From Thermoanaerobaculia bacterium (GTDB taxonomy: Bacteria > Acidobacteriota > Thermoanaerobaculia > Multivoradales > Multivoraceae), in contig OY762911.1 of NCBI GenBank assembly GCA_963666565.1, forward strand, positions 3,296,001 through 3,360,000: a DNA stretch of 64,000 nucleotides. The letters run 5' to 3'. Below, piece after piece: positions 1-13,865 of the stretch. Both the position numbers and the translations under genes were made by a program. How positions within the stretch are numbered: position 1 is the stretch's first letter; each line of letters opens with the position of its first letter. The notes under the pieces are model-generated. The model made no database searches and was not told the origin of the DNA. It was given only the letters and a program-made list of their open reading frames with translations.

Positions 1-1042
1 GGGCGACTTCCTTCATGGGCTCGAGACGGCTGCGGATCGCCCACGAGTACCAGCCGTCGAAGATCTCTCGCGCCTCGACGCGGTCCCGCGTCTCCCACAT
101 CATCATCGCCACCTCCTTCAGGTGCCAGCAACGCGCCGTCTTCAAGGTCGCGTTCACCAAGGTCTTGAAGGAGGCCGCATGCCTCTCCGGCAACCGGTCG
201 GGGTGGTACAGCCACATGTGCCGGGTGCCGGCCAGCCGGTCGTCCCCCCGGTTCTGCAGCTCTCGGTGCTCCGCCACCCGCACCCGGTTCACGGCGTCGC
301 CCAGATGGGCCGCGACGTGGAACTTGTCGTACGCGAGCTTGGCGCCGCCGGCAGGCAGGCAGGACACCGTCGCCGAGATGTACGCCGGCCACATGTCCAT
401 CGCCACCGTCTCGATCCGGGAGCGCTCCGCCTCCGACAACGACTCGTAGTACGAGGACAGAGCGTCCTTGCCCCGACCGTCCGCCACGTGATGCACCCGC
501 GGCTCGCCCTCGATGTCAGCCACCACCGTCACGTACTCGTGGCGCTTCTGAAACGACGTCTCGTCCACGCCCAGAACCCTCGACGCCGGCGCCGGCCCGC
601 GCCGCTCGAGCCCGCGCTTCACCGCACGCTCCATCACGCCGGATACCTGGTCCCAACTCAGGTCCAGAAGCCGAGCCACCGCCGAGACGCTCGCCGCACC
701 CAGCCAGTCGATCACCAGCGCCTCGAACAACGCCGTGAACCGCGAGCCCGGGTCCGACCAGGGCACGCCGATCGTCAGCACTCCGTGCTCCGCGCAACGC
801 ACCCTAGGCACGTCCGCGGTCAGGATCGTCCGGTACTGGCACGTCGGCAGATGCCGCCAGCGCCGACGACGCGCGTCGTGCCGGCTCGCCGAGCCGCCGC
901 ACTTGGGACAACGGAACGACTCGCCCTGCCTGCGAGCCACCAACACCTCCACCTCGCCGGACTCAAGCCGCAGCTCGACGTCCGTCACCTCCCAGGGACT
1001 CTCGATGCCGAGAATCCGACCGTACAAGTCTGTGTTGCGCAT
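1..1042 (-). CDS. ISL3-family transposase (C-terminus outside window; absent from ORF track)
   Basis: Manual translation from ATG 1042 gives MRNTDLYGRILGIESPWEVTDV..., a zinc finger CPKCG...RRWRHL...VPRVRCAEHG, a later DRFH motif and WYSWAIRSRLEPMKEVA. Confidence 0.9.
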   Translation of the reverse strand, partial: MRNTDLYGRILGIESPWEVTDVELRLESGEVEVLVARRQGESFRCPKCGGSASRHDARRRRWRHLPTCQYRTILTADVPRVRCAEHGVLTIGVPWSDPGSRFTALFEALVIDWLGAASVSAVARLLDLSWDQVSGVMERAVKRGLERRGPAPASRVLGVDETSFQKRHEYVTVVADIEGEPRVHHVADGRGKDALSSYYESLSEAERSRIETVAMDMWPAYISATVSCLPAGGAKLAYDKFHVAAHLGDAVNRVRVAEHRELQNRGDDRLAGTRHMWLYHPDRLPERHAASFKTLVNATLKTARCWHLKEVAMMMWETRDRVEAREIFDGWYSWAIRSRLEPMKEVA

Positions 1043-1084
1043 CGCGCCACACTACGCGATCTCCACCATCAACCCGGAAGAGCC
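1..1084 (-). mobile_element. ISL3-family insertion sequence (partial, runs off left edge)
   Basis: The minus strand begins GGCTCTTCCGGGTTGATGG at 1084, a typical ISL3 GGCTCTTC terminus, followed by an ISL3 transposase ORF. Confidence 0.85.
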
Positions 1085-1090
1085 ACCAAA

Positions 1091-2179
1091 GTGAGCGAGA
1101 TGGGCAGGGGAACAGGGGCCGCTCGCCGGCCCTACACCGTAGGCGCGCTCTTCTGCGGCATGGGCGGCTTCGCTTCAGGTATGGACCGGGAGGGGTTCGA
1201 CCTGCGCTGGGCCAGCGACTCCGACGCGGCTGCTTGCGCCACGTTTCACCACCGCTTCCCTCACGTCCCCGTGCTCGAGAGGGATGTGGCGGATCTCTCC
1301 GTGGCAGCCGATCGCCTCGATCCTGTCGATGTCCTGACGGCGGGCTTTCCGTGCCAGAGCTTCTCGCAAGCGGGCGACCGTCGGGGCTTCGACGATCCGC
1401 GTGGCCGGACGTTCCTCGAGATCATCCGCCTTGTTGGTGAGTTCGCTGAGACTGAAAGGCCCCGACTACTCTTGTTGGAGAACGTCCCGCACCTTCTCCA
1501 CGGCGCCGGAGGCGCCTGGTTCGACAGGGTGCGGCGTGAGCTGAGGCGCGCCGGCTACTGGTTTCGGCAGTCCGCCTGCTGGGTGGCCAACGTGAAGGAC
1601 GAGACCGCCCTTCCTCAAGACCGCGAGCGCCTGTTCATGGTGGCCGCTTCCAGACACCACTTCAGTTTCAACCCGTTCAGGCCTCCGGCAGACCGTCCTG
1701 AGACCGCCCAGCCCAGATTGTCCGCGAAGCTGAATGGCAAGCACGGTCTGGACGAGTTCGTCGACCGGGGCCACCGCCGAGAACCCTCCGAGTACTTGTC
1801 CCCACACAACCGCTACTTCAAGATGATCGCCCGGAAGATGGAGACTGGCGACCACCGGAACATCTACCAACTCAGGCGCTCCTACGTGCGCGAGAAGAAA
1901 GACGGCCTCTGCCCCACGCTCACAGCCAACATGGGGATCGGCGGACACAACGTCCCCTTCATACGGGACGAATGGGGAATCCGCCGGCTCGGCGTGGATG
2001 AAGTCGCTCGCCTCCAGGGGTTCAGCGACCCCCACAGCCTGTTTCCGGCGGAGATCCCTGCCACGGAACGCTATCGTCTGCTCGGCAACGCGGTATGCGC
2101 TGACCTCGCCACGGTGGTCGCCGGGCGCTGCATCGATATCCTGGTTGAACACTCCATACGGCCCAGCGAGGGAGACTAG
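1091..2179 (+). CDS. DNA (cytosine-5)-methyltransferase
   Basis: Motifs LFCGMGG (I), GFPCQSFS (IV), LLENV (VI), PQDRER (VIII), RRL...ARLQGF (IX) and YRLLGNAV (X). Start is GTG 1091 or ATG 1100. Confidence 0.95.
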   Translation: MSEMGRGTGAARRPYTVGALFCGMGGFASGMDREGFDLRWASDSDAAACATFHHRFPHVPVLERDVADLSVAADRLDPVDVLTAGFPCQSFSQAGDRRGFDDPRGRTFLEIIRLVGEFAETERPRLLLLENVPHLLHGAGGAWFDRVRRELRRAGYWFRQSACWVANVKDETALPQDRERLFMVAASRHHFSFNPFRPPADRPETAQPRLSAKLNGKHGLDEFVDRGHRREPSEYLSPHNRYFKMIARKMETGDHRNIYQLRRSYVREKKDGLCPTLTANMGIGGHNVPFIRDEWGIRRLGVDEVARLQGFSDPHSLFPAEIPATERYRLLGNAVCADLATVVAGRCIDILVEHSIRPSEGD

Positions 2180-2180
2180 C

Positions 2181-4163
2181 GTGGCTGATGACATCGGTTG
2201 GCACTTTCCGCCCACCGGCGGCGGCCAAGAAGACGGCTACAATCACTCTGGGATGGCGCACTTTCGCGGCGCCCGGATCGGGAGCTTGGCTCGCGAGACC
2301 ATCCAGAACTCGCTCGACGCACATGACCAGGGGCCGAAGGCGGTCCATGTGGCTTTCGAGGTCCGTTCGCTCAGCGCGCAGGAGGACTCCTTCGGCCACG
2401 AGGGACTCCGACGGGCGATCGAGTCCTGCCGCGTCCGCGCCGAGGCGGACGAGGACGATGGTGCCGTCGGTGGGCTGACTCGCGCATTGGACCTTCTTGA
2501 AGCTGGCGACGTCGCCTATCTGCGGATCTCCGACCAGAACACGACCGGCCTCACGAACCGCCACTGGAAGGCCCTCGTCAAAGTACAAGGTCTCACCGTC
2601 AAGCAGCCTGGAAGCGATCCTCTCGGTTCGCACGGCATCGGGAAGTACGCCCCGTTTGCGGTTTCGTCGCTCCGTACAGTCTTCTACTGGACTGCCTTTC
2701 CCGAGGACGGCAAAGTTGTAGAGAAGCTGCAGGGAAAGTCCGTACTGATGACCCACGACGGGCCTGAGGGTCCGACCCAGGGAACGGGCTTCTACGGCTA
2801 CCGACACGGATGTCGAGAACTCGACCCGGACCGAATACCGCGCTGCTTCCGGGTCCTGGACAACACCGGGAAGCCACAATCAGGTACGAGCCTGTCCGTG
2901 TTGGGCTTCAGTGCTGATCCGGGCTGGCAGCGAGAGCTCGCAGGACGAGTGCTCGTCAGCTTCTTTCATGCCGTCAGCCACGGCAACCTTGAGACGACGA
3001 TCGAACCCGACGACGAGCTGCAGGAACGCGAGCTCTTGACGATCGACCGGTGCACGATCGGCGATTGGTTCGCCTACTTGGTCGATTCCGCTCGATCCGG
3101 CGACGCCGATCAAGAGCTGGAGGACTTGGCCGAAGCCCGGGCCTTCTGGACGCTGCCGGGCGAGCACGATCAGAAGTTCGAGAAACAGGATCAGGATCTG
3201 GGCCATTGCAAGCTCTACCTGCGCGTAGAGGAGGGCTTGCCAAGCAAGGTCGCACTTGTCCGTCGGTCGGGCATGTTGGTGACCTCGGACCAGAGGGGTC
3301 TGAAGCAGTTTCGCGGACTCGATGACTTCGCTGCCCTGTGCGTCTTCGAGGATCCCGAGGGCAACGAGCTCCTTCGGAAGATGGAGAACCCGCAGCACGA
3401 TCAGTTCGAGCCGGAGCGTCTACCCGACGAAGAGAAGGAGGTCGGCCGCAAGGCACTCAAGCGGGTCACGGACTGGATCAGAAGCAGCATCCGCGAGCAC
3501 GCCAAGCCGCCCGAGACCGCGGCAACGTCGGCCCTAAAGGAAGTGGCTGAACTCCTTCCCGATCCGTATGCGGAGGATGATCTGGGCGGGGGCGCGGCCG
3601 GCGACGGCATCGAGAAGTCCTTCGCGGACCGAATCGAGGAGCTGGCACTCAGGCCGATCAGACGCCGCCCCTCACGCGGCCTCTCCTCAGAAGCTACAGA
3701 AGTGGATGCCAACGCCGAAGGCGACGGCGATTTGGAAGGAGAGCAAGGCGGTCGGGGCGAGGGATCGAACCACGGTGGTGGCGGGGACGGACATGGTCGC
3801 GGAGAGGGCGAAGGCCGAGGTGGAACCGGCTCTCGGGGAGGCAGCGCGACCGCGAAGCTCGTGCCAGTGCATGGCGTTCGCATGCTGCCGCTGGAAGATC
3901 GTCACGAACTGGAGGTCAGCTTCACGAGTACGGAGTCCGGGCTCGTACAGCTCCAGGTCGAGGAAGCAGGAGACGCCTCGGCAATCCCCCACGCCAATCT
4001 GATCGCCTTCGACGAGCATGGCGACCGTATCGACCTGCAGTGCGTGGAGATTCGCGCTCGCCGTCGCTTCCGCCTTCGGATCCGATCCACTGAGCCCATC
4101 CATGACCGGGCATGGCGAGTGGCGCTCAGGCCAGCCGCCGGCGGGGAGTACTCAGGAGGATGA
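2181..4163 (+). CDS. GHKL (Hsp90/MutL/MORC-like) ATPase-domain protein with acidic Gly-rich linker
   Basis: GTG 2181 follows a GGGAG RBS. Bergerat-fold motifs RETIQNSLDA, ISDQNTTGL and GSHGIGK; acidic Gly-rich stretch before a small C-terminal domain. Confidence 0.75.
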   Translation: MADDIGWHFPPTGGGQEDGYNHSGMAHFRGARIGSLARETIQNSLDAHDQGPKAVHVAFEVRSLSAQEDSFGHEGLRRAIESCRVRAEADEDDGAVGGLTRALDLLEAGDVAYLRISDQNTTGLTNRHWKALVKVQGLTVKQPGSDPLGSHGIGKYAPFAVSSLRTVFYWTAFPEDGKVVEKLQGKSVLMTHDGPEGPTQGTGFYGYRHGCRELDPDRIPRCFRVLDNTGKPQSGTSLSVLGFSADPGWQRELAGRVLVSFFHAVSHGNLETTIEPDDELQERELLTIDRCTIGDWFAYLVDSARSGDADQELEDLAEARAFWTLPGEHDQKFEKQDQDLGHCKLYLRVEEGLPSKVALVRRSGMLVTSDQRGLKQFRGLDDFAALCVFEDPEGNELLRKMENPQHDQFEPERLPDEEKEVGRKALKRVTDWIRSSIREHAKPPETAATSALKEVAELLPDPYAEDDLGGGAAGDGIEKSFADRIEELALRPIRRRPSRGLSSEATEVDANAEGDGDLEGEQGGRGEGSNHGGGGDGHGRGEGEGRGGTGSRGGSATAKLVPVHGVRMLPLEDRHELEVSFTSTESGLVQLQVEEAGDASAIPHANLIAFDEHGDRIDLQCVEIRARRRFRLRIRSTEPIHDRAWRVALRPAAGGEYSGG

Positions 4164-5026
4164 AGTGGGATCCAGGCAAAGCGTTTCCGCATCCCGTTCT
4201 CCGACCCGACCGGCGGGACGAAGGCGACTACCCGACAGCCGAGTTTGAAGCCGACGTCGAAGCGGTCCGCGCCAAGGGAGCGATGGCTGTGGAGGTGTCC
4301 GTCGACTTTGAACTGTCCGACGCCGACCTCAGAAGCCTCGTTGGTCGAGGCGACGCAGAGTGCGTCCTTCTTGTCGAGGCACCTACAACTCGTTTCCGCC
4401 GTCTTCTCAGGGCGACCTGCTACCGCCTGCACGAGAGCTTCCGTGCGGGCGAGTTGAAGGGAAGAGTCGAATTCCGGCCGTTCCTGGTCTGCCTGCGGGA
4501 ACTGGTCGGCTTCAAGGCGGCAGGGTGGCACGCCGACTACGGCAAACGGTCTTTCGACCTCTATCCGGGGTCTGTGCTTGGCCAGGACGAGCCGCGTGCG
4601 TACTGGATCGACACGGAAGACGAGAAGCCGATCGGCTCGATCTTCAAGCACGTGGCGTCAAGCCGCCAAGCGGATGGAACTTGGGTTTGTGACTTGTCCG
4701 GGAACCAGGTCGCGGTTCAGATGTCCGAACGGGACCATGGCCGCTTTGAAGAGGCCGGTCGCCGGCGCCAGGACGACGCCGCATTCCTGATCAACAGCGT
4801 CTACCTCCCGGCCCTTGTCCACGTGCTCAGCGAGGCGGATCGGTCGGAGGACGAGTACTCCGGCTATCGCTGGTTCTCCACGCTCGACCAGAAGCTTGAA
4901 GAACTCGGTTGCCCCCCTCTTGGAAGGGTAGCCCCGGATCGCCTCGCCGATGCTCAGAAGCTGTTGGATTCACCCTTGGGGCGTCTCCCCCAGTTCGCGG
5001 ACCGCGACTCGGAACCGGCGGCATGA
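4160..5026 (+). CDS. conserved hypothetical protein (N-terminal FPHPVL...DY motif) in methyltransferase operon
   Basis: ATGA overlap with the upstream stop, AGGAGG RBS, globular composition. Confidence 0.8.
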   Translation: MKWDPGKAFPHPVLRPDRRDEGDYPTAEFEADVEAVRAKGAMAVEVSVDFELSDADLRSLVGRGDAECVLLVEAPTTRFRRLLRATCYRLHESFRAGELKGRVEFRPFLVCLRELVGFKAAGWHADYGKRSFDLYPGSVLGQDEPRAYWIDTEDEKPIGSIFKHVASSRQADGTWVCDLSGNQVAVQMSERDHGRFEEAGRRRQDDAAFLINSVYLPALVHVLSEADRSEDEYSGYRWFSTLDQKLEELGCPPLGRVAPDRLADAQKLLDSPLGRLPQFADRDSEPAA

Positions 5027-5653
5027 CTCTCCACTACTACAGGCAGGCGATCGTCGACGACTACTTCGACCGCGTTGAGCTGAACCTCGACTGGTACTAC
5101 GAGCCGAACGGGGAAGCGCCAGAACCCCAGGAGACATACACGACCAGATCGGCGCCCATTGAAGCGCGTGATCTGTCGAGCCTCCTGAAGCCACAGGACG
5201 CGAAACCGTCGGAGACGGACGCCGGCAACGCCCTACTCGTCTACGAGGCGCTGAACGCGCTCAGTCCGCATCAGGCGACCGACGAGAGACTCTGGGCCTA
5301 CCTCTGCCACAACAGCTGCTCGGCCTACGTCGCGTGGCGGTGGTTGGGACACCGTCCCGACGCCACTGAGGTGGCGGCCAAGAAAGTGCGCAGTCACTTC
5401 TTCGCCCGCCGGAACGGCTCCAGATCTCTCGTCCGGGACAATGGCGTCTCCAGGCTTTGGTGGCTCGGCTACATCGCGCACCAGATCGACCCGGAACACC
5501 CCCGCAGGTTTCTGGAGATTCTGCTCCACAGGCAGGACGTACGTTCCGCGCTGATCGAGAGGCCCGCGGTGTCGATGAACCTGGAAGTCCTCAAGGCCAT
5601 CTACGGCGTGATGCGGAACCTGTCAACGAGTTTGACACAGGGGCTTCTCGGAT

Positions 5654-6652
5654 TTACTGAGCCATCTCCGATGCTTCGGGGCTCGGCTTGTTGATCCAGA
5701 CGGCCTGAGGCAGGGGTTGGTGCATCGGCTCGCCGCCGACGAATCGTTCCGGGTGGCGTCTCCAGGCGGCGCTCAGCGCTCGCTGGCGCTGTTCGATCGC
5801 GGCTTGCGCCCGGCCGTAGTGGACGGTCTCCGGAGTCAGCATGGCGATGCCGGCATGCCGGTGCTCGGTGTTGTACCAGGGGAAGAAGGACCTGCAGTAG
5901 CCGGTCGCCGCGTCCTGGTCGGGGAAGCGGTCGGGAAAGCCGGGGTGGTACTTCAGGGTCTTGAACTGGGCTTCGGAGAAGGGGTTGTCGTCGCTGACGC
6001 GAGGTCGGCCCAGGGATCGGTTCACGCCGAGGCGGGCGAGCAGTTGGGCGGTACCCTGGCTGGTCATGGGCGCGCCCCGGTCGGAGTGCAGGGTGAGCAC
6101 CGAGGGTTTCACGCCGTGCTTGAGGCAGGTCTCCTCGATGAGCCTCTGGGCGAGCGCGGCATTCTCGCGGTCGGCAACCATCCAGCCGACCGCGTAGCGG
6201 CTGAAAAGGTCGAGCAGGACGTAGAGGTAGTAGTAGCTCCAGGGCCGCGGGCCGAGCAGCCTGGTGATGTCCCACGACCACACCTGGTTGGGCGCGGTGG
6301 CGACCAACTCCGGCTTGGCGTAGGGCGGGTGGACCCGCTGGTTGCGACGGTCCTTCACCTCCCCGTTCGCGCCCAGGATGCGGTACATGGTGCGTTCCGA
6401 GCACAGGTACCGGCCCTCGTCCAGCAGCGTCGCCACCACCTCCGCCGGCGAGCGATCCACGAACCGGGGAGACGCGAGCGTCGCCTGGACCCGCTCCCGC
6501 TCGATCTCGCTCAGCGCCCGGGCGGGCGCGGGTCGGGGCAGCTGGCGCCCGGGAGCGGGCCTCGCCCTACGGTAGAACGTCGATCGCGACACGCCCAGCG
6601 CCCGGCACGCCGGCGCGACGCCGACCTTGCTTGCCAGGGACCGGGCCGCCAT
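5654..6652 (-). CDS. IS3-family transposase OrfB (DDE integrase core)
   Basis: WSWDIT, LHSDRG and DNPFSEAQFKTLKY DDE motifs; ATG overlaps the orfA stop (TGATG). Confidence 0.92.
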   Translation of the reverse strand: MAARSLASKVGVAPACRALGVSRSTFYRRARPAPGRQLPRPAPARALSEIERERVQATLASPRFVDRSPAEVVATLLDEGRYLCSERTMYRILGANGEVKDRRNQRVHPPYAKPELVATAPNQVWSWDITRLLGPRPWSYYYLYVLLDLFSRYAVGWMVADRENAALAQRLIEETCLKHGVKPSVLTLHSDRGAPMTSQGTAQLLARLGVNRSLGRPRVSDDNPFSEAQFKTLKYHPGFPDRFPDQDAATGYCRSFFPWYNTEHRHAGIAMLTPETVHYGRAQAAIEQRQRALSAAWRRHPERFVGGEPMHQPLPQAVWINKPSPEASEMAQ

Positions 6653-7137
6653 CAGCAGTCCTTCCCGTCTTCGAGGCTGAATCCCAGCAGCCCTGCAACT
6701 TTTCCCTGCACGTCCAGGATCGTGTGGGCGGCGGCGAGCTCCCTCTCCAGCCGCTTCACCTTGGCCTCCAGCCGCTTCACCTTCGGCGCCAGAGGGTTGG
6801 CCTCGGTCGGCTTGCGGCCCCGCTTCTTCCGCCGCAGACCGGAAAGCGCGCCCTCGCGCCGCGCCTTGCGCCAGTTGGCCAAGTGCGAGCTGTACAGACC
6901 CTCTCGCCGAAGCAGCCGGCCCACTTCGCCGCGATCCGTGCATCGGTCCGCCTCCTCCAGAATCCGCAGACGGTACTCCGCCGTGAACTGCCGTCTGGTC
7001 GGCTTCGCCACGACCTCCGGGTCGGGAACACCCCCCGCGGGCGACGCGCCGGCCCCGGGGGCCTCGTCGCTCCGCTCCTCACCCCCCGGGGCCGGGAGCT
7101 CCGGGCCACCCCAACGTCTCTGCTCTCGTCTCGCCAT
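6652..7137 (-). CDS. IS3-family OrfA (HTH DNA-binding)
   Basis: RRQFTAEYRLRILEEAD...LLRREGLYSSHLANWR HTH plus a coiled coil; AGGAGG RBS before ATG 7137. Confidence 0.9.
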   Translation of the reverse strand: MARREQRRWGGPELPAPGGEERSDEAPGAGASPAGGVPDPEVVAKPTRRQFTAEYRLRILEEADRCTDRGEVGRLLRREGLYSSHLANWRKARREGALSGLRRKKRGRKPTEANPLAPKVKRLEAKVKRLERELAAAHTILDVQGKVAGLLGFSLEDGKDC

Positions 7138-7388
7138 CGATCCTCCTTGCCAACGTGTGCCCTCCACTATTCAACGGGATGCCCGCTGTGTCACGTACGT
7201 TGGCAGAGAGGGATGCAGGAGCACTGGCAACAGGAGACGAGAGGCCTGTTCGCGCGCGAGACCTTTCGCACCTGGATGGTCAACATCAACCGGCGCGGAG
7301 GCGTCGTTCTCCTCGACGCTCTTCCGGAACCTGCCTTGACGGCGCTTCTGCGCGACGAGGCCGCGCGGGCCTTGGAGGCGACTGCCGG

Positions 7389-7805
7389 TTGACCGACAAT
7401 CTGAGCCCGGCGGATCGTTCCAGGTGCATGGCGAGCATCCGCTCGCAGGGCATGAAGCCCGAGCGTGCGGTCCGCTCCATGGCGCATCGCCTCGGCTATC
7501 GCTTCCGCTTGCACCGCCGAGACCTGCCCGGCACACCCGACCTCGTCTTCCCGCGACACCGGGCGGTGGTGTTCGTCAACGGCTGTTTCTGGCACTGGCA
7601 CGCCGATCCCATGTGCCCGATTGCTGCGCTCCCGAAGTCCAACCTAGGGTACTGGAAGCCGAAGTTGACCCGTACGCGTTCTCGCGACAGTGAGAACGTG
7701 GCCAAGCTGGTCTGTCTCGGTTGGAGGGTCCTCACGATCTGGGAGTGTGAGCTGCGGGACCCGGAGACCGCGCTCGTGCGGCTTGACCGATTCCTCTCGA
7801 CCTGA
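7389..7805 (+). CDS. vsr: very short patch repair endonuclease
   Basis: TTG start overlaps the DUF6339-like stop. Motifs RSRCMASIRSQGMKPE, LPGTPDLVF, FVNGCFWHWH and GWRVLTIWECE. Confidence 0.93.
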   Translation: MTDNLSPADRSRCMASIRSQGMKPERAVRSMAHRLGYRFRLHRRDLPGTPDLVFPRHRAVVFVNGCFWHWHADPMCPIAALPKSNLGYWKPKLTRTRSRDSENVAKLVCLGWRVLTIWECELRDPETALVRLDRFLST

Positions 7806-8845: not shown

Positions 8846-9838
8846 TCAGTCTATCCGCTCGGCGCCCCGCTGTCCCCCGGCCGCATCGCGCCTGAACGCC
8901 AGCAGTTCGCCGTAGCGGCCGGCGGCGTCCGGGGGCTCCCGGCCGTTCTCCTCCCGCGCGGCGCGGAGCCAGTCTGCGCTGGCCTTCAGGCCGCCGAAGG
9001 TGAACAGGTGGATGCCGGCCAGCGTGGTTCCCGGATTCCCGGCGAGATGGCGGGCGAGCGGCGCCGCGACGACGTCGGGCGACCAGCGGCCGGTCAGCCG
9101 CATCGCGCCGGGCCGGCGGCGCAGGAAGCGCGCCGACGGGCCGATGCCGCAGCGCGCCGCATAGATCGTCAGCGTATGCAGCCGGGCCGGTCCCGGCACG
9201 CCGATGCGCACTGGCAGCGTGCATCCGGCGTCCTCGATGCGTGCCAGCCAGTTCAGGAACGGCGCCGGCGAGAATCCGAACTGGGTCACGACCCACATCC
9301 GCGTGCCGGTCGCGGCGGCGTACTCGATCTTGCGCGAGAGCGCGGAGTCGAGGCGCCCGCGGTCGACGAAGGGATGACCTTCCGGATGGGCCGCGATTCC
9401 CAGGCTGCGAAAGCCGCGCTCCGCCAGCAGGCCGGAGTCGAGGACCGCCAGAGCGTCGGGATACGGTCCGGCCGCTTCGGCGCGGTCGCCGGCCACGAGC
9501 AGCAGGGAGTCGACGCCGGCGCCGGCCAGTTCGGACAGCCGCGCGTCGAGCTCGGCGGCGCTTCGCAATTCCCTGGCGAGCAGGTGCGGCACGGGCTTCA
9601 TCCCGGCCGACAGGATCCGCTCGCACGCCGCGACCGTGTCCCGCCAGCGGCCCCTGGGCAGGAACGGCACGTAGACGCTGGCGCCCCGGGGAAGGTGGCG
9701 CGCCAGCGATTCGCCCACCGCGTGCGGCGGCACCTCGACCGACGCCCCGACCGCCAGGTCGCGCAGGGCGGACCGCTCGCCGTCCTCGTCCGGCGCCGCC
9801 ATCGACGGCGCGGGCCGCTCCGACGAACCGAACCGCAT
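8846..9838 (-). CDS. metF: methylenetetrahydrofolate reductase-like protein
   Basis: PVPHLLAR, LLVAGD, AAHPEGHP and VTQFGF motifs in the C-terminal part of ORF 8846..11404; start approximate. Confidence 0.8.
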   Translation of the reverse strand: MRFGSSERPAPSMAAPDEDGERSALRDLAVGASVEVPPHAVGESLARHLPRGASVYVPFLPRGRWRDTVAACERILSAGMKPVPHLLARELRSAAELDARLSELAGAGVDSLLLVAGDRAEAAGPYPDALAVLDSGLLAERGFRSLGIAAHPEGHPFVDRGRLDSALSRKIEYAAATGTRMWVVTQFGFSPAPFLNWLARIEDAGCTLPVRIGVPGPARLHTLTIYAARCGIGPSARFLRRRPGAMRLTGRWSPDVVAAPLARHLAGNPGTTLAGIHLFTFGGLKASADWLRAAREENGREPPDAAGRYGELLAFRRDAAGGQRGAERID

Positions 9839-9855
9839 TCCGCGCGCTCCCGGCC

Positions 9856-11160
9856 TCAGTCCGCCGCGTCCTCGCCGCGGGCGTGCGCCAGTTCGCGCGC
9901 ACTCGGGTTCACCGACTCGCGGAACGGCACCTCGCATACCCGCGCCGGGTCGGGCCGGCCCGGTTCCGTGGCGTACTCGTCGGGGAGTTGGACGAGGAGC
10001 TCCGTTCCAACCGCCGACTTCGCCACAGGCACGTAGCCCAGCGCGATGTTGCAGCCGAGCTCGGGTGCGTGCCACGGCGATGTCAGATAGCCGATCGGAT
10101 CGCCGCCGTCCGCGTCCGACACCAGCCAGAAGTCCGGCGCGTAGTCGTCGATCGGCTTGCCGCCCACGGTCATGCCGACCAGGAGCATCGAGAACGGCGG
10201 CCGCCCGGCCTCGATCTCCTCGCGCATCCGCTCCAGGGCCTCCCGGCCGATGTAGTCGCCCTCCTTCTTGCGGGGCACCTGGTAGGCCAGGTTGCACTGG
10301 AACGGCGTCGTCTCGTGGTCCATGTCCTGTCCCCAGGACAGGATGCCGGCCTGGATGCGCCGCTGGTGGCCCGGGGCGATGACCGTGAGCCGGTGGCGCT
10401 CGCCCGCCCGGAGCACCGCGTTCCACAGCGTCTCGGCGTGCAGCGTGGCGTCGCGCAGGTAGATCTCGTAGCCCTTCTCGCCGGAGAAGCCGGACTGCGA
10501 GATCACCACCCGGCAACCCTCGATCTCTGCCTCCAGCAGGCCGTAGTAGGGAATGTCCCGGATCCGCTCCCCGACCAGATCGACCATCAGCGCCAGCGAC
10601 TTCGGCCCCTGGATCTGCACCGGGCAGACGTCGATCTCGTCGATCTCCACGTCCATTTTCAGGCCGACATTCAGGCCCTGGAGCCAGAACAGGATGTCGG
10701 AGTCGGCCAGCGAGAACCAGAACTCGTCCTCCGACAGGCGCAACAGCACGGGGTCGTTGAGGATGCCGCCCTTCTCGTTGCACAGGATGACGTACCGGCC
10801 GCGCATCGGCAGAATCCGCGTCGCGTCGCGGGTGATGACGTAGTCGGTGAAGCGCTCGGCGTCCGGACCCGCGACCCGGATCTGGCGCTCCACCGCGACG
10901 TTCCACATCGTCACGTGCTTCGTCAGCGCCTCGTGCTCGGCGGCGGCGCCGCCGTCCTCCGGCCGGACGTAGCCGCGGGGATGGTAGATGCGGTTGTAGA
11001 CCGTGGCCCGCCAGCAACCGGCCTCGTGGGACAGGTGCCAGTAGGGAGATTTCCGCACGCGGGTCGAGATCAGCAGCTCGACCGGCGTCCGGCCGCTCTG
11101 GCGCAGGTTGATCGGGACGATCCGGTCGGACTGATCGACGCTTCCAGGCTGGCCGCTCAT
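9856..11160 (-). CDS. GcvT-family THF-dependent methyltransferase (DmdA-like)
   Basis: MWNVAVERQ, NDPVLLRL...WFSLADSD, IQGPKS, SGFSGEKGYEIY and RRIQAGILSWG motifs. Confidence 0.85.
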   Translation of the reverse strand: MSGQPGSVDQSDRIVPINLRQSGRTPVELLISTRVRKSPYWHLSHEAGCWRATVYNRIYHPRGYVRPEDGGAAAEHEALTKHVTMWNVAVERQIRVAGPDAERFTDYVITRDATRILPMRGRYVILCNEKGGILNDPVLLRLSEDEFWFSLADSDILFWLQGLNVGLKMDVEIDEIDVCPVQIQGPKSLALMVDLVGERIRDIPYYGLLEAEIEGCRVVISQSGFSGEKGYEIYLRDATLHAETLWNAVLRAGERHRLTVIAPGHQRRIQAGILSWGQDMDHETTPFQCNLAYQVPRKKEGDYIGREALERMREEIEAGRPPFSMLLVGMTVGGKPIDDYAPDFWLVSDADGGDPIGYLTSPWHAPELGCNIALGYVPVAKSAVGTELLVQLPDEYATEPGRPDPARVCEVPFRESVNPSARELAHARGEDAAD

Positions 11161-11306
11161 TGCACCTCCCTTTTTCGTGCGTCCGGCGCGGCAGAAGGCG
11201 CCCGGAAGCTGGCGCTCGGTGCCGGATGCAAGCGAGGACGCCGGTGCACCCGGTTTCGGCCGCTTCTGCCGCGCGGGCGTCTGGGCTACGATGACTCACA
11301 GGGACG

Positions 11307-13865
11307 ATGACCGCAAGTACCTCCGTGCCGCCGGCGCCGCCCCCGACCGTGGCGCCGCCCCAGCGAGCGACCATCGCCGTCATCGGCGCCGGCATCGTCG
11401 GCAACTTCCTCGTCCATCACCTGGCCGAGCTCGGCTGGCGCGACCTCGTGCTGATCGACAAGGGACCGCTGCCCAATCCGGGCGGCTCGACCGGCCACGC
11501 CTCGAACTTCATCTTCCCCACGGACCACAACCGCGAGATCGCGATGCTGACGCTGGAGAGCCAGCGCCAGTACGCGGCGCTCGGCGTCAACACCGCCTGC
11601 GGCGGCATCGAGGTGGCGCGCACCGAGGAGCGGATGGAGGAACTGCGCCGGCGAATGACCTCGGCGCGGACCTGGGGCATCGAGACGGAACTGCTGAACC
11701 CTGCGGAAGTCGTCGGGAAGGTGCCGTTCGTCAACGCCGACGTCGTCCTGGGCGGATTCTTCACCCCGAGCGCGTCCGTGGTCGACTCGGTGCGGGCCGG
11801 AACCCTCGCTCGCGAGCGGGCGCTGGCGAAGGGCGCGCTCACCGTGCTCGACGAGACCGAGGTGACCGGCATCGAGGTCGAGCGCCGCCCGTTCGCCCGG
11901 CCGCGGGTCCGCGCCGTCGCGACCGACCGCGGCACGATCGCGGCGGACCGGGTCGTCGTCGCCTGCGGCGTCTGGAGCCCGCGGATCGCCGCGATGGCCG
12001 GAGCGACGATTCCGCTCACCCCGGCGGTCCACCAGATGGCCGACTTCGGCCCGATCGATCTGCTGCACCGCACAGGGAACGAGATCGGCTATCCGATCGT
12101 GCGCGACATGGACACCTTCATGTACGAGCGCCAGGACCACGACGCGATGGAGGTCGGCTCTTACGCCCACCGGCCGATCCTGGTCCGGCCCGACGAGATC
12201 CCCTCGCTCGCCGAGGCGAAGCGCACGCCGACCGAGATGCCGTTCACCGCCGGCGACTTCGCGCCCCAGCTCGAGGAGGCGCGGCGGCTGATGGGCGGCC
12301 TGCTCGCCGACTCGGAGATGCGCTACTCGGTCAACGGGTTGCTGTCCCTGACGCCCGACGCGCAGCAGGTGCTGGGCGAGACAGCCGAGGTCGAGAATCT
12401 CTGGTCGGCGGCGGCGGTCTGGATCAAGGAGGGTCCCGGCAGCGCGCGGCTGATCGCCGAGTGGATCACCCACGGCTACCCGCGCCTGTGCGACCCGCAC
12501 GGGTCGGACGTGACCCGCTTCTACCCGCACGAGCGGACCGAGCGGCACGTCCGGCGGCGCTGCCGCGAGCACTTCAACAAGACCTACGGCATAGTCCATC
12601 CCCGCGAGCAGTGGGAGTCGGAGCGCGGCGTCCACCGGGCGCCGTTCCACGACCGCACCGCGGCTCTCGGCGCCGAGTACTACGAGGCGCGCGGCTGGGA
12701 GCGCCCCCAGTGGTACGCCTCGAACGAGGACCTGGTCGCCCGCTACGGGGTCGCCGACCGTCCCCACGAATGGGACCGCCGCTGGTGGTCGCCGATCGTC
12801 GACGCGGAGCACCTGCACCTGCGCGAGAAGGCCGGCATCGTCGACCTGAGCGCGTTCCAGGTGTTCGAGGTCTCCGGTCCGGGCGTCGTGCCCTACATCG
12901 AGCGGTTGACGGTCAACCGCTGCGACCGGCCGACGGGCAGTTCCATCTACACGCCGCTGCTGACGCCGGAGGGCGGCATCCGTGCCGACCTGACGATCCA
13001 GCGTCTGGCGGAGGACCGCTTTCGCGTCGTCACCGGCGCCTTCGACGGGGCGCGCGACCGCGTCTGGTTCGAGCGCCACCTCCCCGCCGACGGTTCGGTC
13101 CGGTTCGAGGACCGTTCGGCCGCCCTGTGCACGATCGGCGTCTGGGGTCCGCGCGCACGGGCGCTGCTTGAGAAGATCGCCGACATCCCGCTCTCGCGGG
13201 AAGCGTTCCCGTACAGCACGGGGCGCGAAGCCGTCCTGGACGGCGTGCCGGCGACGATGCTCCGCATCTCCTACGTCGGCGAAAGCGGCTGGGAGATCTA
13301 CGCTCCCGCGCCGTGCGGCGTCCGCCTCTGGGACGCGATCCGGGAGGCTGGCCGGGAGCTCGGCGCGCGGCCGGTCGGCATCGGCGTCTACGGCACGACC
13401 GGCCGTCTGGAGAAGGGCTACGCGCTGATGGGCGCGGACCTGACCTCGGAGTACACGCCGGTCGAGGCCGGCCTGGCCCGGCGCGGCGTCAAGAAGGCGG
13501 ACTTCATCGGCAAGGAGGCCTACCTCCGGGCGCGGGCCGAAGGGCCGGCGGCGAAGCTGTGCACGCTGACGATGGACGACCACGCCAGCGCGTCCGGGGT
13601 CCCCCGCTTCCCCACCGGCGGCGCCGAGCCGATCCTGACCCTCGACGGCGAACGGATCGTGGACGCCCACGGGCGGGAATCCCGAGTCACCTCCGCCGGC
13701 ATGGGGCCGTCGGTCGGCAAGTACATCCTGTTCGCCTACCTGCCGCTCGAGCACGCCGGGGCCGGAACCCGGCTGCAGGTCCTCTACATGAACGAGCCCT
13801 TCCCCGTCACCGTCGCCGCGGGTCCGGCCCTGTTCGATCCCGGCAACGCGCGGATGAAGGCGTAA
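11307..13865 (+). CDS. dimethylglycine/sarcosine dehydrogenase-like FAD oxidoreductase with GcvT C-terminal domain
   Basis: IGAGIVG, GGSTGHA (covalent FAD His), GWERPQW and GESGWEIY; 852 aa. Confidence 0.9.
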   Translation: MTASTSVPPAPPPTVAPPQRATIAVIGAGIVGNFLVHHLAELGWRDLVLIDKGPLPNPGGSTGHASNFIFPTDHNREIAMLTLESQRQYAALGVNTACGGIEVARTEERMEELRRRMTSARTWGIETELLNPAEVVGKVPFVNADVVLGGFFTPSASVVDSVRAGTLARERALAKGALTVLDETEVTGIEVERRPFARPRVRAVATDRGTIAADRVVVACGVWSPRIAAMAGATIPLTPAVHQMADFGPIDLLHRTGNEIGYPIVRDMDTFMYERQDHDAMEVGSYAHRPILVRPDEIPSLAEAKRTPTEMPFTAGDFAPQLEEARRLMGGLLADSEMRYSVNGLLSLTPDAQQVLGETAEVENLWSAAAVWIKEGPGSARLIAEWITHGYPRLCDPHGSDVTRFYPHERTERHVRRRCREHFNKTYGIVHPREQWESERGVHRAPFHDRTAALGAEYYEARGWERPQWYASNEDLVARYGVADRPHEWDRRWWSPIVDAEHLHLREKAGIVDLSAFQVFEVSGPGVVPYIERLTVNRCDRPTGSSIYTPLLTPEGGIRADLTIQRLAEDRFRVVTGAFDGARDRVWFERHLPADGSVRFEDRSAALCTIGVWGPRARALLEKIADIPLSREAFPYSTGREAVLDGVPATMLRISYVGESGWEIYAPAPCGVRLWDAIREAGRELGARPVGIGVYGTTGRLEKGYALMGADLTSEYTPVEAGLARRGVKKADFIGKEAYLRARAEGPAAKLCTLTMDDHASASGVPRFPTGGAEPILTLDGERIVDAHGRESRVTSAGMGPSVGKYILFAYLPLEHAGAGTRLQVLYMNEPFPVTVAAGPALFDPGNARMKA

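Follow-up and report, generated by a model that had tools for sequence, protein, structure and literature searches.

GHKL ATPases encoded in restriction-modification (R-M)-like operons together with Dcm and Vsr were predicted to be the ATP-driven engine of R-M-like systems by Iyer, Abhiman and Aravind (2008, PMC2292703), who also pointed out a functional link between MutL and Vsr. Here we analyze a cassette of related composition in a 64,000-nucleotide stretch of the genome of a Thermoanaerobaculia bacterium (contig OY762911.1, positions 3,296,001 to 3,360,000 of the forward strand), referred to as the window. At positions 1091-7805 of the window, five co-oriented genes on the plus strand encode a C5 cytosine DNA methyltransferase (C5-MTase, abbreviated M), three middle proteins termed A, B, and C, of which C is a DUF6339 protein, and the endonuclease Vsr. 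A scan of 185,579 species genomes with an alignment of A yielded 77 distinct loci, taken with up to 10 kb of flanking sequence on each side (L-numbers denote the loci surveyed). Across these loci the cassette is a horizontally mobile four-gene core, comprising the C5-MTase, PDC-M33A, PDC-M33B, and PDC-M33C, to which Vsr is an optional addition. We propose that the cassette is an ATP-dependent, R-M-like defense system, the window copy of which is inactive, and we give this reading, with its mechanism as set out below, a probability of about 0.5.

Comparison with described systems

PADLOC includes 145 "phage defence candidates" (PDCs), chosen because their homologues occur inside BREX, DISARM, or type I R-M loci (Payne et al., bioRxiv 10.1101/2024.01.29.577857). 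The original prediction for this locus had matched its gene combination to no named system. We found, to the contrary, that A, B, and C match the PADLOC models of PDC-M33A (PDLC04582, E value 2.2e-92), PDC-M33B (PDLC04583, 3.7e-40), and PDC-M33C (PDLC04586, 1.2e-33), in the same order and orientation and adjacent to one another with ATGA overlaps. A match of all genes to a named system had been regarded as evidence against the prediction, and here the answer is divided: A, B, and C do carry the name PDC-M33, but PDC-M33 is itself only a catalogued candidate. The window clade also differs from other PDC-M33 copies. It is divergent, A being 24-31% identical to the copies on plasmids and phages, and it has a dedicated C5-MTase in the operon, usually with Vsr, and is without the open reading frame (ORF) of about 75 amino acids that lies upstream of A elsewhere.

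The cassette resembles the MORC and paraMORC loci described in PMC2292703 in encoding a GHKL ATPase in an operon with a cytosine methylase (in 74 of the 77 loci) and Vsr (in 45 of the 77), and A has a Bergerat (GHKL) fold with conserved motifs. MORC-type proteins have an S5-fold domain following the ATPase, which in paraMORC2 is reported to contain an ExxxH motif; A contains an ExxxH motif, E402-H406, that by its description may correspond to this one. The cassette differs from the MORC and paraMORC loci in that the 77-locus flanks have no conserved SF2 helicase and no conserved nuclease partner of the restriction-endonuclease fold, HNH, or PLD type, and B and C are not among the partners described in the part of PMC2292703 available to us. 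A further difference is that HATPase_c_3 and the other HATPase models of Pfam match 0 of 40 A-family members at E <= 1. The Pfam family HATPase_c_3 is the signature of the MORC-type ATPase domain. The term "MORC-like" in the original prediction is thus not specifically supported, the nearest folds of A being Hsp90/TRAP1/HtpG and Topo VI-B.

PADLOC also includes models for Mza systems. The Z1/AIPR partners of Mza, which the original prediction had described as absent here, were not found, and A, B, and C match no PADLOC family except PDC-M33. CglI and NgoAVII, which depend on ATP and resemble type II/III restriction systems, combine a C5-MTase with a PLD-family nuclease and an ATPase of the SF2 helicase-like type. 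By this description, they share with the proposed system a C5-MTase combined with a multi-subunit, NTP-dependent restriction component in place of a single restriction endonuclease (REase), but the ATPase in the window is of the GHKL type and no nuclease fold is recognizable. Tiamat is a single polypeptide in which an Hsp90-like GHL ATPase is joined to a NOV_C/PD-(D/E)xK nuclease; it acts against phages and is often encoded near methylases, and the discussion of the preprint echoes the idea of R-M-linked GHKL ATPases (bioRxiv 10.64898/2026.09.30.754977). The cassette likewise combines an Hsp90-like GHKL ATPase with a methylase neighbor, but A has no NOV_C domain in Pfam and no match to Tiamat in PADLOC. 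As in classical type II R-M systems, the window encodes a DNA methyltransferase with the catalytic motifs PCQ, ENV, and GNAV; it differs from them in that no REase is recognizable in the cassette, B having been assessed by sequence only. Finally, the MTase and Vsr are ordinary members of their families, as in a Dcm-Vsr repair pair, but here three extra genes stand between them and are inherited together with them.

Organization and co-inheritance of the cassette

In the window, M (1091-2179; 362 amino acids, GTG start, intact frame) matches PF00145 (3.4e-49) and TIGR00675 (2e-50). It contains F21xGxG, P87-C88-Q89, E130-N131-V132, and GNAV, and motifs I, IV (PCQ), VI (ENV), VIII, IX, and X are visible in an alignment to M.HaeIII and M.HhaI; its identity to the corresponding gene of L001 is 87%. 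After a 1-nt gap at 2180 follow A (2181-4163; 660 amino acids) and B (4160-5026; 288 amino acids), with ATGA overlaps at 4160 (A/B) and 5023 (B/C). Gene C is present in two parts that share one frame. The N-terminal part (5023-5614) comprises 197 codons and the first base of codon 198 and matches PF19866 (1.5e-34) and PDLC04586 (E value given above), and the C-terminal part (7217-7392), which comprises the last 58 codons and the stop, matches PDLC04586 positions 199-241 (0.0034). Vsr (7389-7805; 138 amino acids) starts with a TTG that overlaps the stop of C in a TTGA junction at 7389, and matches PF03852 (1.7e-25), TIGR00632 (1.5e-40; 138.2 bits versus a cut-off of 97.85), and the PADLOC Vsr model (1.1e-23). 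NCBIfam has no model that matches A, B, or C of the window, and Pfam has none that matches A or B. The G+C content at third codon positions (GC3) is 0.73-0.84 in the five cassette genes versus 0.895-0.948 in seven flanking genes; the window as such is G+C-rich, at 0.61-0.76 across its first 14 kb. Tight coupling of five co-oriented genes, more A/T-ending codons than in the flanks, and a DUF6339-like gene C had all been read from the sequence beforehand, and each of these observations holds, including the gap and all three overlaps.

Genes in the 77 loci were called by tblastn with the window proteins, an MTase being counted when it was at least 40% identical, co-oriented, and ended no more than 150 nt 5' of A. 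By this definition the MTase lies directly upstream of A in 74 of the 77 loci. Two of the three exceptions have another C5-MTase (28-30% identity) on the opposite strand within 4.3 kb, and in the third A is only a fragment. Downstream of A come B and C in 75 of the 77 loci, with one truncated A and one contig end as the exceptions. Apart from these genes and Vsr, the flanks hold nothing conserved: ORFs of >=90 amino acids from the flanks form clusters that cover at most 5 of the 77 loci, and the largest consists of housekeeping genes. Because this order of genes is repeated in 74-75 of 77 independent loci, the arrangement is beyond chance. The expectation that the middle genes would co-occur with C5-MTases elsewhere was therefore borne out, both in these 74 loci and in 6 of 8 distant plasmid and phage contexts, and the survey of neighborhood conservation that had been suggested identifies the five genes as one conserved cassette.

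The identities of M, A, B, and C to the window proteins rise and fall together (Spearman 0.67-0.89, 55 loci), and their pairwise distances correlate (Mantel r 0.89-0.95, p 0.0005, for the 45 loci in which all four are intact). Judged by record titles, the hosts of the loci on the tree of A(1-440) described below belong to Chloroflexota (23), Pseudomonadota (20), Acidobacteriota (11), Actinomycetota (3), Thermodesulfobacteriota (2), Nitrospirota (2), Gemmatimonadota (1), and Vulcanimicrobiota (1), with 2 unplaced; sponge-associated candidate taxa appear in many of the titles in the survey. Across at least 8 phyla, M, A, B, and C are thus inherited as one unit.

Integrity of the cassette genes

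We scored a gene as broken when its matches were distributed among different frames or lay more than 300 nt apart, or when its stop-to-stop frame was shorter than 320, 600, 255, or 228 amino acids for M, A, B, and C, respectively. All four genes are intact in 45 of the 77 loci; they also look intact in L049, from the cultivated Sphingopyxis panaciterrae DSM 27164. M is intact in 65 loci, and in 20 of these 65 at least one of A, B, and C is apparently broken, 6 by insertions of more than 300 nt or truncations and 14 by frameshifts or stops. M is broken in 5 loci, and A, B, or C is also broken in all 4 of these that could be assessed, the fifth being at a contig end; in 4 further loci M is at a contig edge, and in 3 it is not in the adjacent place. 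M is therefore never the sole broken gene (Fisher p 0.012). In view of how much of the total length M takes up, the binomial probability that none of 20 first hits would fall in it is 0.005. Two loci have intact A, B, and C and no cognate M, and these have another C5-MTase within 4.3 kb. Such an asymmetry would be expected if A, B, and C harm a host that is without the methylase and whose own DNA is unmarked. The window conforms to it, with an intact M frame and a destroyed C. In L006, a Thermoanaerobaculia metagenome-assembled genome (MAG), the match to M (residues 16-194) runs directly into the match to A (from residue 17) at L006:9468-10004, as though a deletion had removed the 3' half of M together with the beginning of A.

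Predicted properties of proteins A, B, and C

Residues 5-603 of A align to positions 3-572 of the 627 positions of the PDC-M33A profile, and 494 relatives were found at E <= 1e-3 among 8000 candidates scored, most of about 650 amino acids and 45-50% identical. An AlphaFold2 model based on a 40-sequence alignment (mean predicted local distance difference test score, pLDDT, 74.5; residues 1-445 and 560-655 well modeled) divides A into three regions: residues 1-445 hold the N-terminal ATPase and the middle domain, residues 560-655 form a C-terminal beta domain, and a disordered linker (about 457-557) lies between them. In Foldseek searches of the PDB, the best matches of the model are HtpG/Hsp90/TRAP1/Topo VI-B (E 2e-8, probability 1.0). 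The ATP-binding motifs ExxxN, DxxxxG, and G149-S-H-G-x-G-K155 (GSxGxGK) are kept, with E39 conserved in >=90% of sequences and N43, D46, D118, G123, G149-S150, G152, G154, and K155 invariant. On the basis of the fold match together with these motifs, A is identified as a GHKL-fold ATPase of the dimeric clamp type, and the earlier assignment of a GHKL ATPase is upheld. The ExxxH motif mentioned above runs from E402 (>=90%) to the invariant H406 within a conserved M-E-N-P-x-H-D-x-F-E-P stretch. Sequence and profile searches of the PDB returned low-complexity or chance matches only (best E 0.0024 to 1.2 over the searches with A, B, and C).

The linker of A (window 3549-3851), about 100 residues rich in Gly, Arg, Glu, and Asp, keeps its composition across the family, and some apparent frameshifts of A in MAG assemblies fall within its G-rich stretch. 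A search for fused forms with A(1-445) found no protein longer than 1156 amino acids, and Pfam searches of the proteins of odd length revealed nothing new. One single record, P0161 (749 amino acids), joins A(1-465) to B without the linker and C-terminal domain of A, and another, P0278 (541 amino acids), joins B to C, apparently via a frameshift near the end of B.

B aligns to the PDC-M33B profile from residue 7 to residue 273 (profile positions 6-272 of 289). Searching 1.84 billion representatives with a profile of B returned 3085 clusters (50% identity) at E <= 1e-3. There is no Pfam family common to the 38 members of the B alignment and no sequence relative of B in the PDB by single-sequence or profile search. 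Invariant polar residues are few: D23, Y24, T77, Y215, and W238.

The two halves of C in the window are 87% identical to the L001 orthologue, which is intact and was modeled in place of the split gene. The model is confident and mostly helical (pLDDT 92.7, predicted TM score 0.90), but neither the PDB (best E 0.22, probability 0.07) nor BFVD (best E 0.56) contains a significant match to it; searches of PDB sequences with a C profile gave low-complexity or chance matches only. The invariant residues are mainly Arg and Trp, plus H96 and D172. This dominance of Arg and Trp in a helical protein suggests that C contacts DNA or another nucleic acid. In the ESM Atlas, look-alikes of B and C were limited to unnamed clusters or had scores of 0.81. 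In a complex prediction run on A(1-445), C, and B, with B as partner, the score did not drop when chain 1 was replaced, and we use this prediction neither for nor against binding. The original statement that no REase is recognizable thus stands, A having a GHKL fold only, C being without a match in the PDB or BFVD, and B being without a Pfam or PDB sequence match.

Plasmid and phage copies and the possibility of a guard module

By tblastn, A was found in 24 plasmid and 2 phage records, and we examined eight contexts. Four contexts were scanned with the PADLOC models, and in each of them the match of A, B, and C to PDC-M33 is stronger than that of the window proteins (E down to 4.9e-205); in the other four the C gene is annotated as DUF6339. 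Six of the 8 contexts have a C5-MTase no more than about 2.5 kb away. A temperate phage of [Clostridium] innocuum carries an integrase, a small ORF, A, B, C, a 179-amino-acid ORF, and a C5-MTase fused to a helix-turn-helix domain. A Deinococcus plasmid has Dcm, Vsr, a NOV_C-domain gene on the opposite strand, a small ORF, A, B, and C, and a Planococcus plasmid has an AlwI-family REase, Vsr, Dcm, a small ORF, A, B, and C. The trio adjoins a Sau3AI/MutH-family REase and dcm on a Priestia plasmid, an EcoRII-C REase and dcm on a Paenarthrobacter plasmid, and a HATPase_c_3 ATPase and Dcm on a Halobaculum plasmid. No C5-MTase was detected on a Ligilactobacillus salivarius megaplasmid, where A, B, and C lie between HsdS/HsdM and an MmeI-like enzyme, or within the 12.4 kb of a Lactococcus lactis plasmid, where they lie beside AbiGII. 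Some distant copies have only N6-adenine methylases nearby. On the Halobaculum plasmid (L084:5914-13200), the trio stands back to back with the second GHKL ATPase (HATPase_c_3, 2.6e-19) and Dcm, so that two GHKL-plus-methylase modules are adjacent.

Five of the distant contexts have an ORF of about 75 amino acids directly 5' of A, with copies that are 38-60% identical and belong to no Pfam family (L083:5725-5955, L086:5745-5978, L079:4744-4974, L080:1907-2131, and L085:5803-5991). Among the 77 loci it is present in one (L058:4646-4870, likewise upstream of A), and it is not in the window. This ORF may encode a fourth component or a regulator outside the PADLOC definition of PDC-M33.

The contexts bear on an explanation other than an R-M-like system, namely an abortive-infection or "guard" role independent of methylation, in which A, B, and C merely accompany R-M systems and methylases and sense either a phage product or an attack on the neighboring R-M system, much as PrrC guards EcoprrI. 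Dcm would then be a partner here by co-transfer only. Such a role would agree with the definition of PDC-M33 by embedding in other defense systems, with the copies next to HsdS/HsdM and the MmeI-like enzyme or AbiGII in which no C5-MTase was detected, with the copies beside complete Sau3AI-like or EcoRII-like R-M pairs, and with the failure of the fold searches with A and C to find a DNA-cleaving domain. In the window clade, however, only 1 nt separates the MTase from A, to which it is translationally coupled, and 74 of 77 loci have it. Its co-variation with B and C is as tight as that of A (r 0.94-0.95), no locus was seen in which it alone is lost, and the flanks contain no conserved REase to be guarded. 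We consider a guard module rather unlikely, but the best placed of the alternatives.

Specificity of the methyltransferase and role of Vsr

The variable (target-recognition) region of the MTase, residues 196-294, has a conservation of 0.63 compared with 0.70 and 0.66 for the catalytic parts (66 sequences). Because it is nearly as conserved as these, the alignment suggests one shared specificity. The best solved full-length relative is M.HaeIII (E 1.3e-20), with which the recognition region aligns poorly, and we therefore claim no target motif.

Several palindromes, CTAG, CTCGAG, CAGCTG, and GGCC, are low in the window and in 1.55 Mb of pooled host loci (L001-L077). In the 64-kb window CAGCTG occurs 2 times versus 18.6 expected from a Markov model (observed/expected ratio, O/E, 0.11), the strongest avoidance among 4- and 6-mer palindromes, and its O/E pooled over the 77 host loci is 0.65. 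GGCC is below expectation in 77 of 77 loci (O/E 0.81) and CTCGAG in 68 of 77 (0.61). As these figures come from carrier loci only, with no control genomes, they are not attributable to the methylase of the cassette.

Vsr comes immediately after C in 45 of the 77 loci; 3 loci have it farther downstream and 3 at another position, and it was not found in 26, of which 23 have more than 600 nt after C. On a tree of A(1-440) with 66 rows, from which twelve loci with an incomplete N-terminal match or a stop in it were left out, Vsr underwent at least 13 gains or losses, 10 of them forced by well-supported branches, against a mean of 19.1 for shuffled states. So many changes indicate that Vsr is dispensable, and it is an accessory, optional fifth gene. 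The original prediction had counted Vsr as part of the system; this is right for the window, where it scores above the curated cut-off and is coupled to C, but as an accessory it was not found in 26 of 77 loci.

The presence of Vsr raises the question of whether A, B, and C instead serve in the management of 5-methylcytosine (5mC) damage, a MutL-like A helping Vsr together with B and C, or replacing host MutS/MutL in T:G repair, with no role in defense. GHKL ATPases include MutL, for which the link to Vsr was made by Iyer et al. (PMC2292703), and a C5-MTase is the commonest denominator of the loci (74 of 77, plus 6 of the 8 distant contexts), with Vsr translationally coupled to C in the window. 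We nevertheless regard a repair function as improbable, since the 26 loci without Vsr in the fetched sequence, 23 of them with room for it, keep M, A, B, and C, the gains and losses on the tree are at least 13, some copies are near N6-adenine methylases only, and the nearest folds of A are Hsp90 and Topo VI-B and not MutL. Moreover, a repair module that is useless without M should sometimes survive the loss of M, and 0 such loci were seen. More improbable still is a selfish addiction or epigenetic module, acting by post-segregational killing or methylation-dependent regulation and with no antiviral benefit, which would fit the patchy cross-phylum distribution, the atypical GC3, and the decay asymmetry that an addiction module also predicts, but not the prophage and plasmid defense contexts, and which sets apart two properties, selfishness and defense, that are compatible and not exclusive in R-M systems.

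Insertion sequences and the state of the window copy

The two insertion sequences (ISs) noted in the original prediction are both present: an IS3-family element splits C, and an ISL3-family element ends just before the MTase gene. The IS3-family element (5615-7211, minus strand, 1597 bp) has imperfect terminal inverted repeats and two overlapping transposase frames with a DDE (rve) domain (4.8e-22), orfA (6652-7167) and orfB (5654-6943; NF033516, 3.2e-53, 181.3 bits versus a cut-off of 160). It is flanked by direct 5-bp target duplications, GATGC, at 5610-5614 (left copy) and 7212-7216 (right copy). DNA alignment with the uninterrupted genes of L001 and L020 identifies a clean simple insertion after codon 197 of C, and removal of the element restores one frame of 255 codons, which equals the length of the L001 protein. 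There is one copy of this element in the window and none in the 77 loci.

The ISL3-family element is represented by its 3' part (2-1083, minus strand) and runs off the start of the window; its transposase ORF (2-1042) matches NF033550 transpos_ISL3 (8.1e-77; 258.8 bits versus a cut-off of 180). The element ends at about 1083-1084, 7 nt 5' of the MTase GTG, and similarity to the native upstream DNA common to L001 and L002 stops at about 1084, which leaves the operon without a 5' region of its own. A sigma-70 promoter scan, which is weak for this kind of organism, found no promoter upstream of the MTase. The promoter of the whole operon was probably lost to the ISL3 insertion, independently of the IS3 insertion in C. 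The window element is 80% identical to one within the MTase gene of L002, a Candidatus Multivorans sp. MAG and close relative. There (L002:6100-16900) M is in three pieces, one gap being an ISL3 copy, and B and C are split by insertions of 1.3 kb and 1.5 kb, respectively. With several insertions in the cassette of L002 as well, IS-driven decay of the system is evident in this lineage, and the window copy is, judging from its sequence, most likely inactive. We suggest that once C was lost the MTase may no longer have been needed, which would have made the ISL3 insertion tolerable.

Downstream of the cassette, the window is colinear with the close relative L020, so that the cassette of L020 occupies the same chromosomal place. 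The genes 3' of the cassette (8846-13865) are related to one-carbon and methylamine metabolism and encode a methylenetetrahydrofolate reductase-like protein, a GcvT-family aminomethyltransferase, and a dimethylglycine or sarcosine dehydrogenase-like fusion; the best NCBIfam match of the GcvT-family gene, below its cut-off, is dimethylsulfoniopropionate demethylase.

Proposed mechanism and evaluation

In the proposed R-M-like system, the MTase would mark one fixed motif of the host with 5mC, and A would act as an ATP-driven dimeric clamp of the Hsp90/MutL/Topo VI-B type, together with B and C, on DNA that is unmarked. We infer that A, B, and C form a complex that tells methylated from unmethylated DNA. 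C, being helical and rich in invariant Arg and Trp, would probably provide a DNA contact, and the action of the complex could be cleavage by an unrecognized active site or trapping of DNA. The MTase might also serve as a sequence-recognition subunit, like Mod in type III systems. Vsr would have no role in restriction and would repair T:G mismatches that arise by deamination of 5mC, which would explain why it is often lost.

An R-M-like defense function is supported by the match to PDC-M33, the linkage in 77 loci, the co-inheritance of the four genes, the single MTase specificity that the alignment suggests, the asymmetric decay, the defense-type contexts of the distant copies, and the GHKL fold of A. 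Several points weigh against it. Full-text literature searches for "PDC-M33" and "DUF6339" found no paper with either name, and thus no experiment on any member; similarly, the main text of a lactococcal defensome paper holds nothing specific on the trio, and a wider search of the literature yielded nothing of relevance. No nuclease, helicase, or DNA-binding family was found in A and C by fold and sequence or in B by sequence, and, as no nuclease was found, the effector step is entirely inferred. Copies are present on 9 Ligilactobacillus salivarius and 6 Lactococcus plasmids, and the stretch examined in one record of each contains no C5-MTase; the trio may thus not need 5mC, or may use other methylases. 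Several of the distant copies stand beside complete type II R-M pairs, which themselves explain the neighboring Dcm. With respect to decay, 14 of the 20 broken calls could be assembly errors (frameshifts or stops in MAGs, some of them in the G-rich linker of A), the six large lesions alone are too few for significance, and the same pattern would result if whole loci decay together.

In conclusion, the trio of A, B, and C was already flagged as a PADLOC candidate, and what we add here is that in a large clade it is tied to one conserved C5-MTase, often with Vsr. According to the survey, the four genes act as one unit and decay in the order expected of an R-M system. If this R-M-like reading is right, the trio would be a new kind of ATP-dependent restriction effector that has no known nuclease fold, and a bacterial counterpart to methylation-linked GHKL ATPases such as MORCs. 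Members of the family are found in bacteria from at least 8 phyla, on haloarchaeal plasmids, and in a temperate phage. The window copy is badly damaged and matters only locally, as an instance of the IS-driven loss of a defense system. A bolder and unlikely interpretation of the family is a widespread restriction-like immunity that has a dedicated C5-methylase and whose effector is no conventional nuclease but an Hsp90/Topo VI-B-like clamp with two proteins of new fold; here either an undescribed active site would cut DNA, or unmethylated DNA would be trapped or compacted without cutting, as proposed for eukaryotic MORCs.

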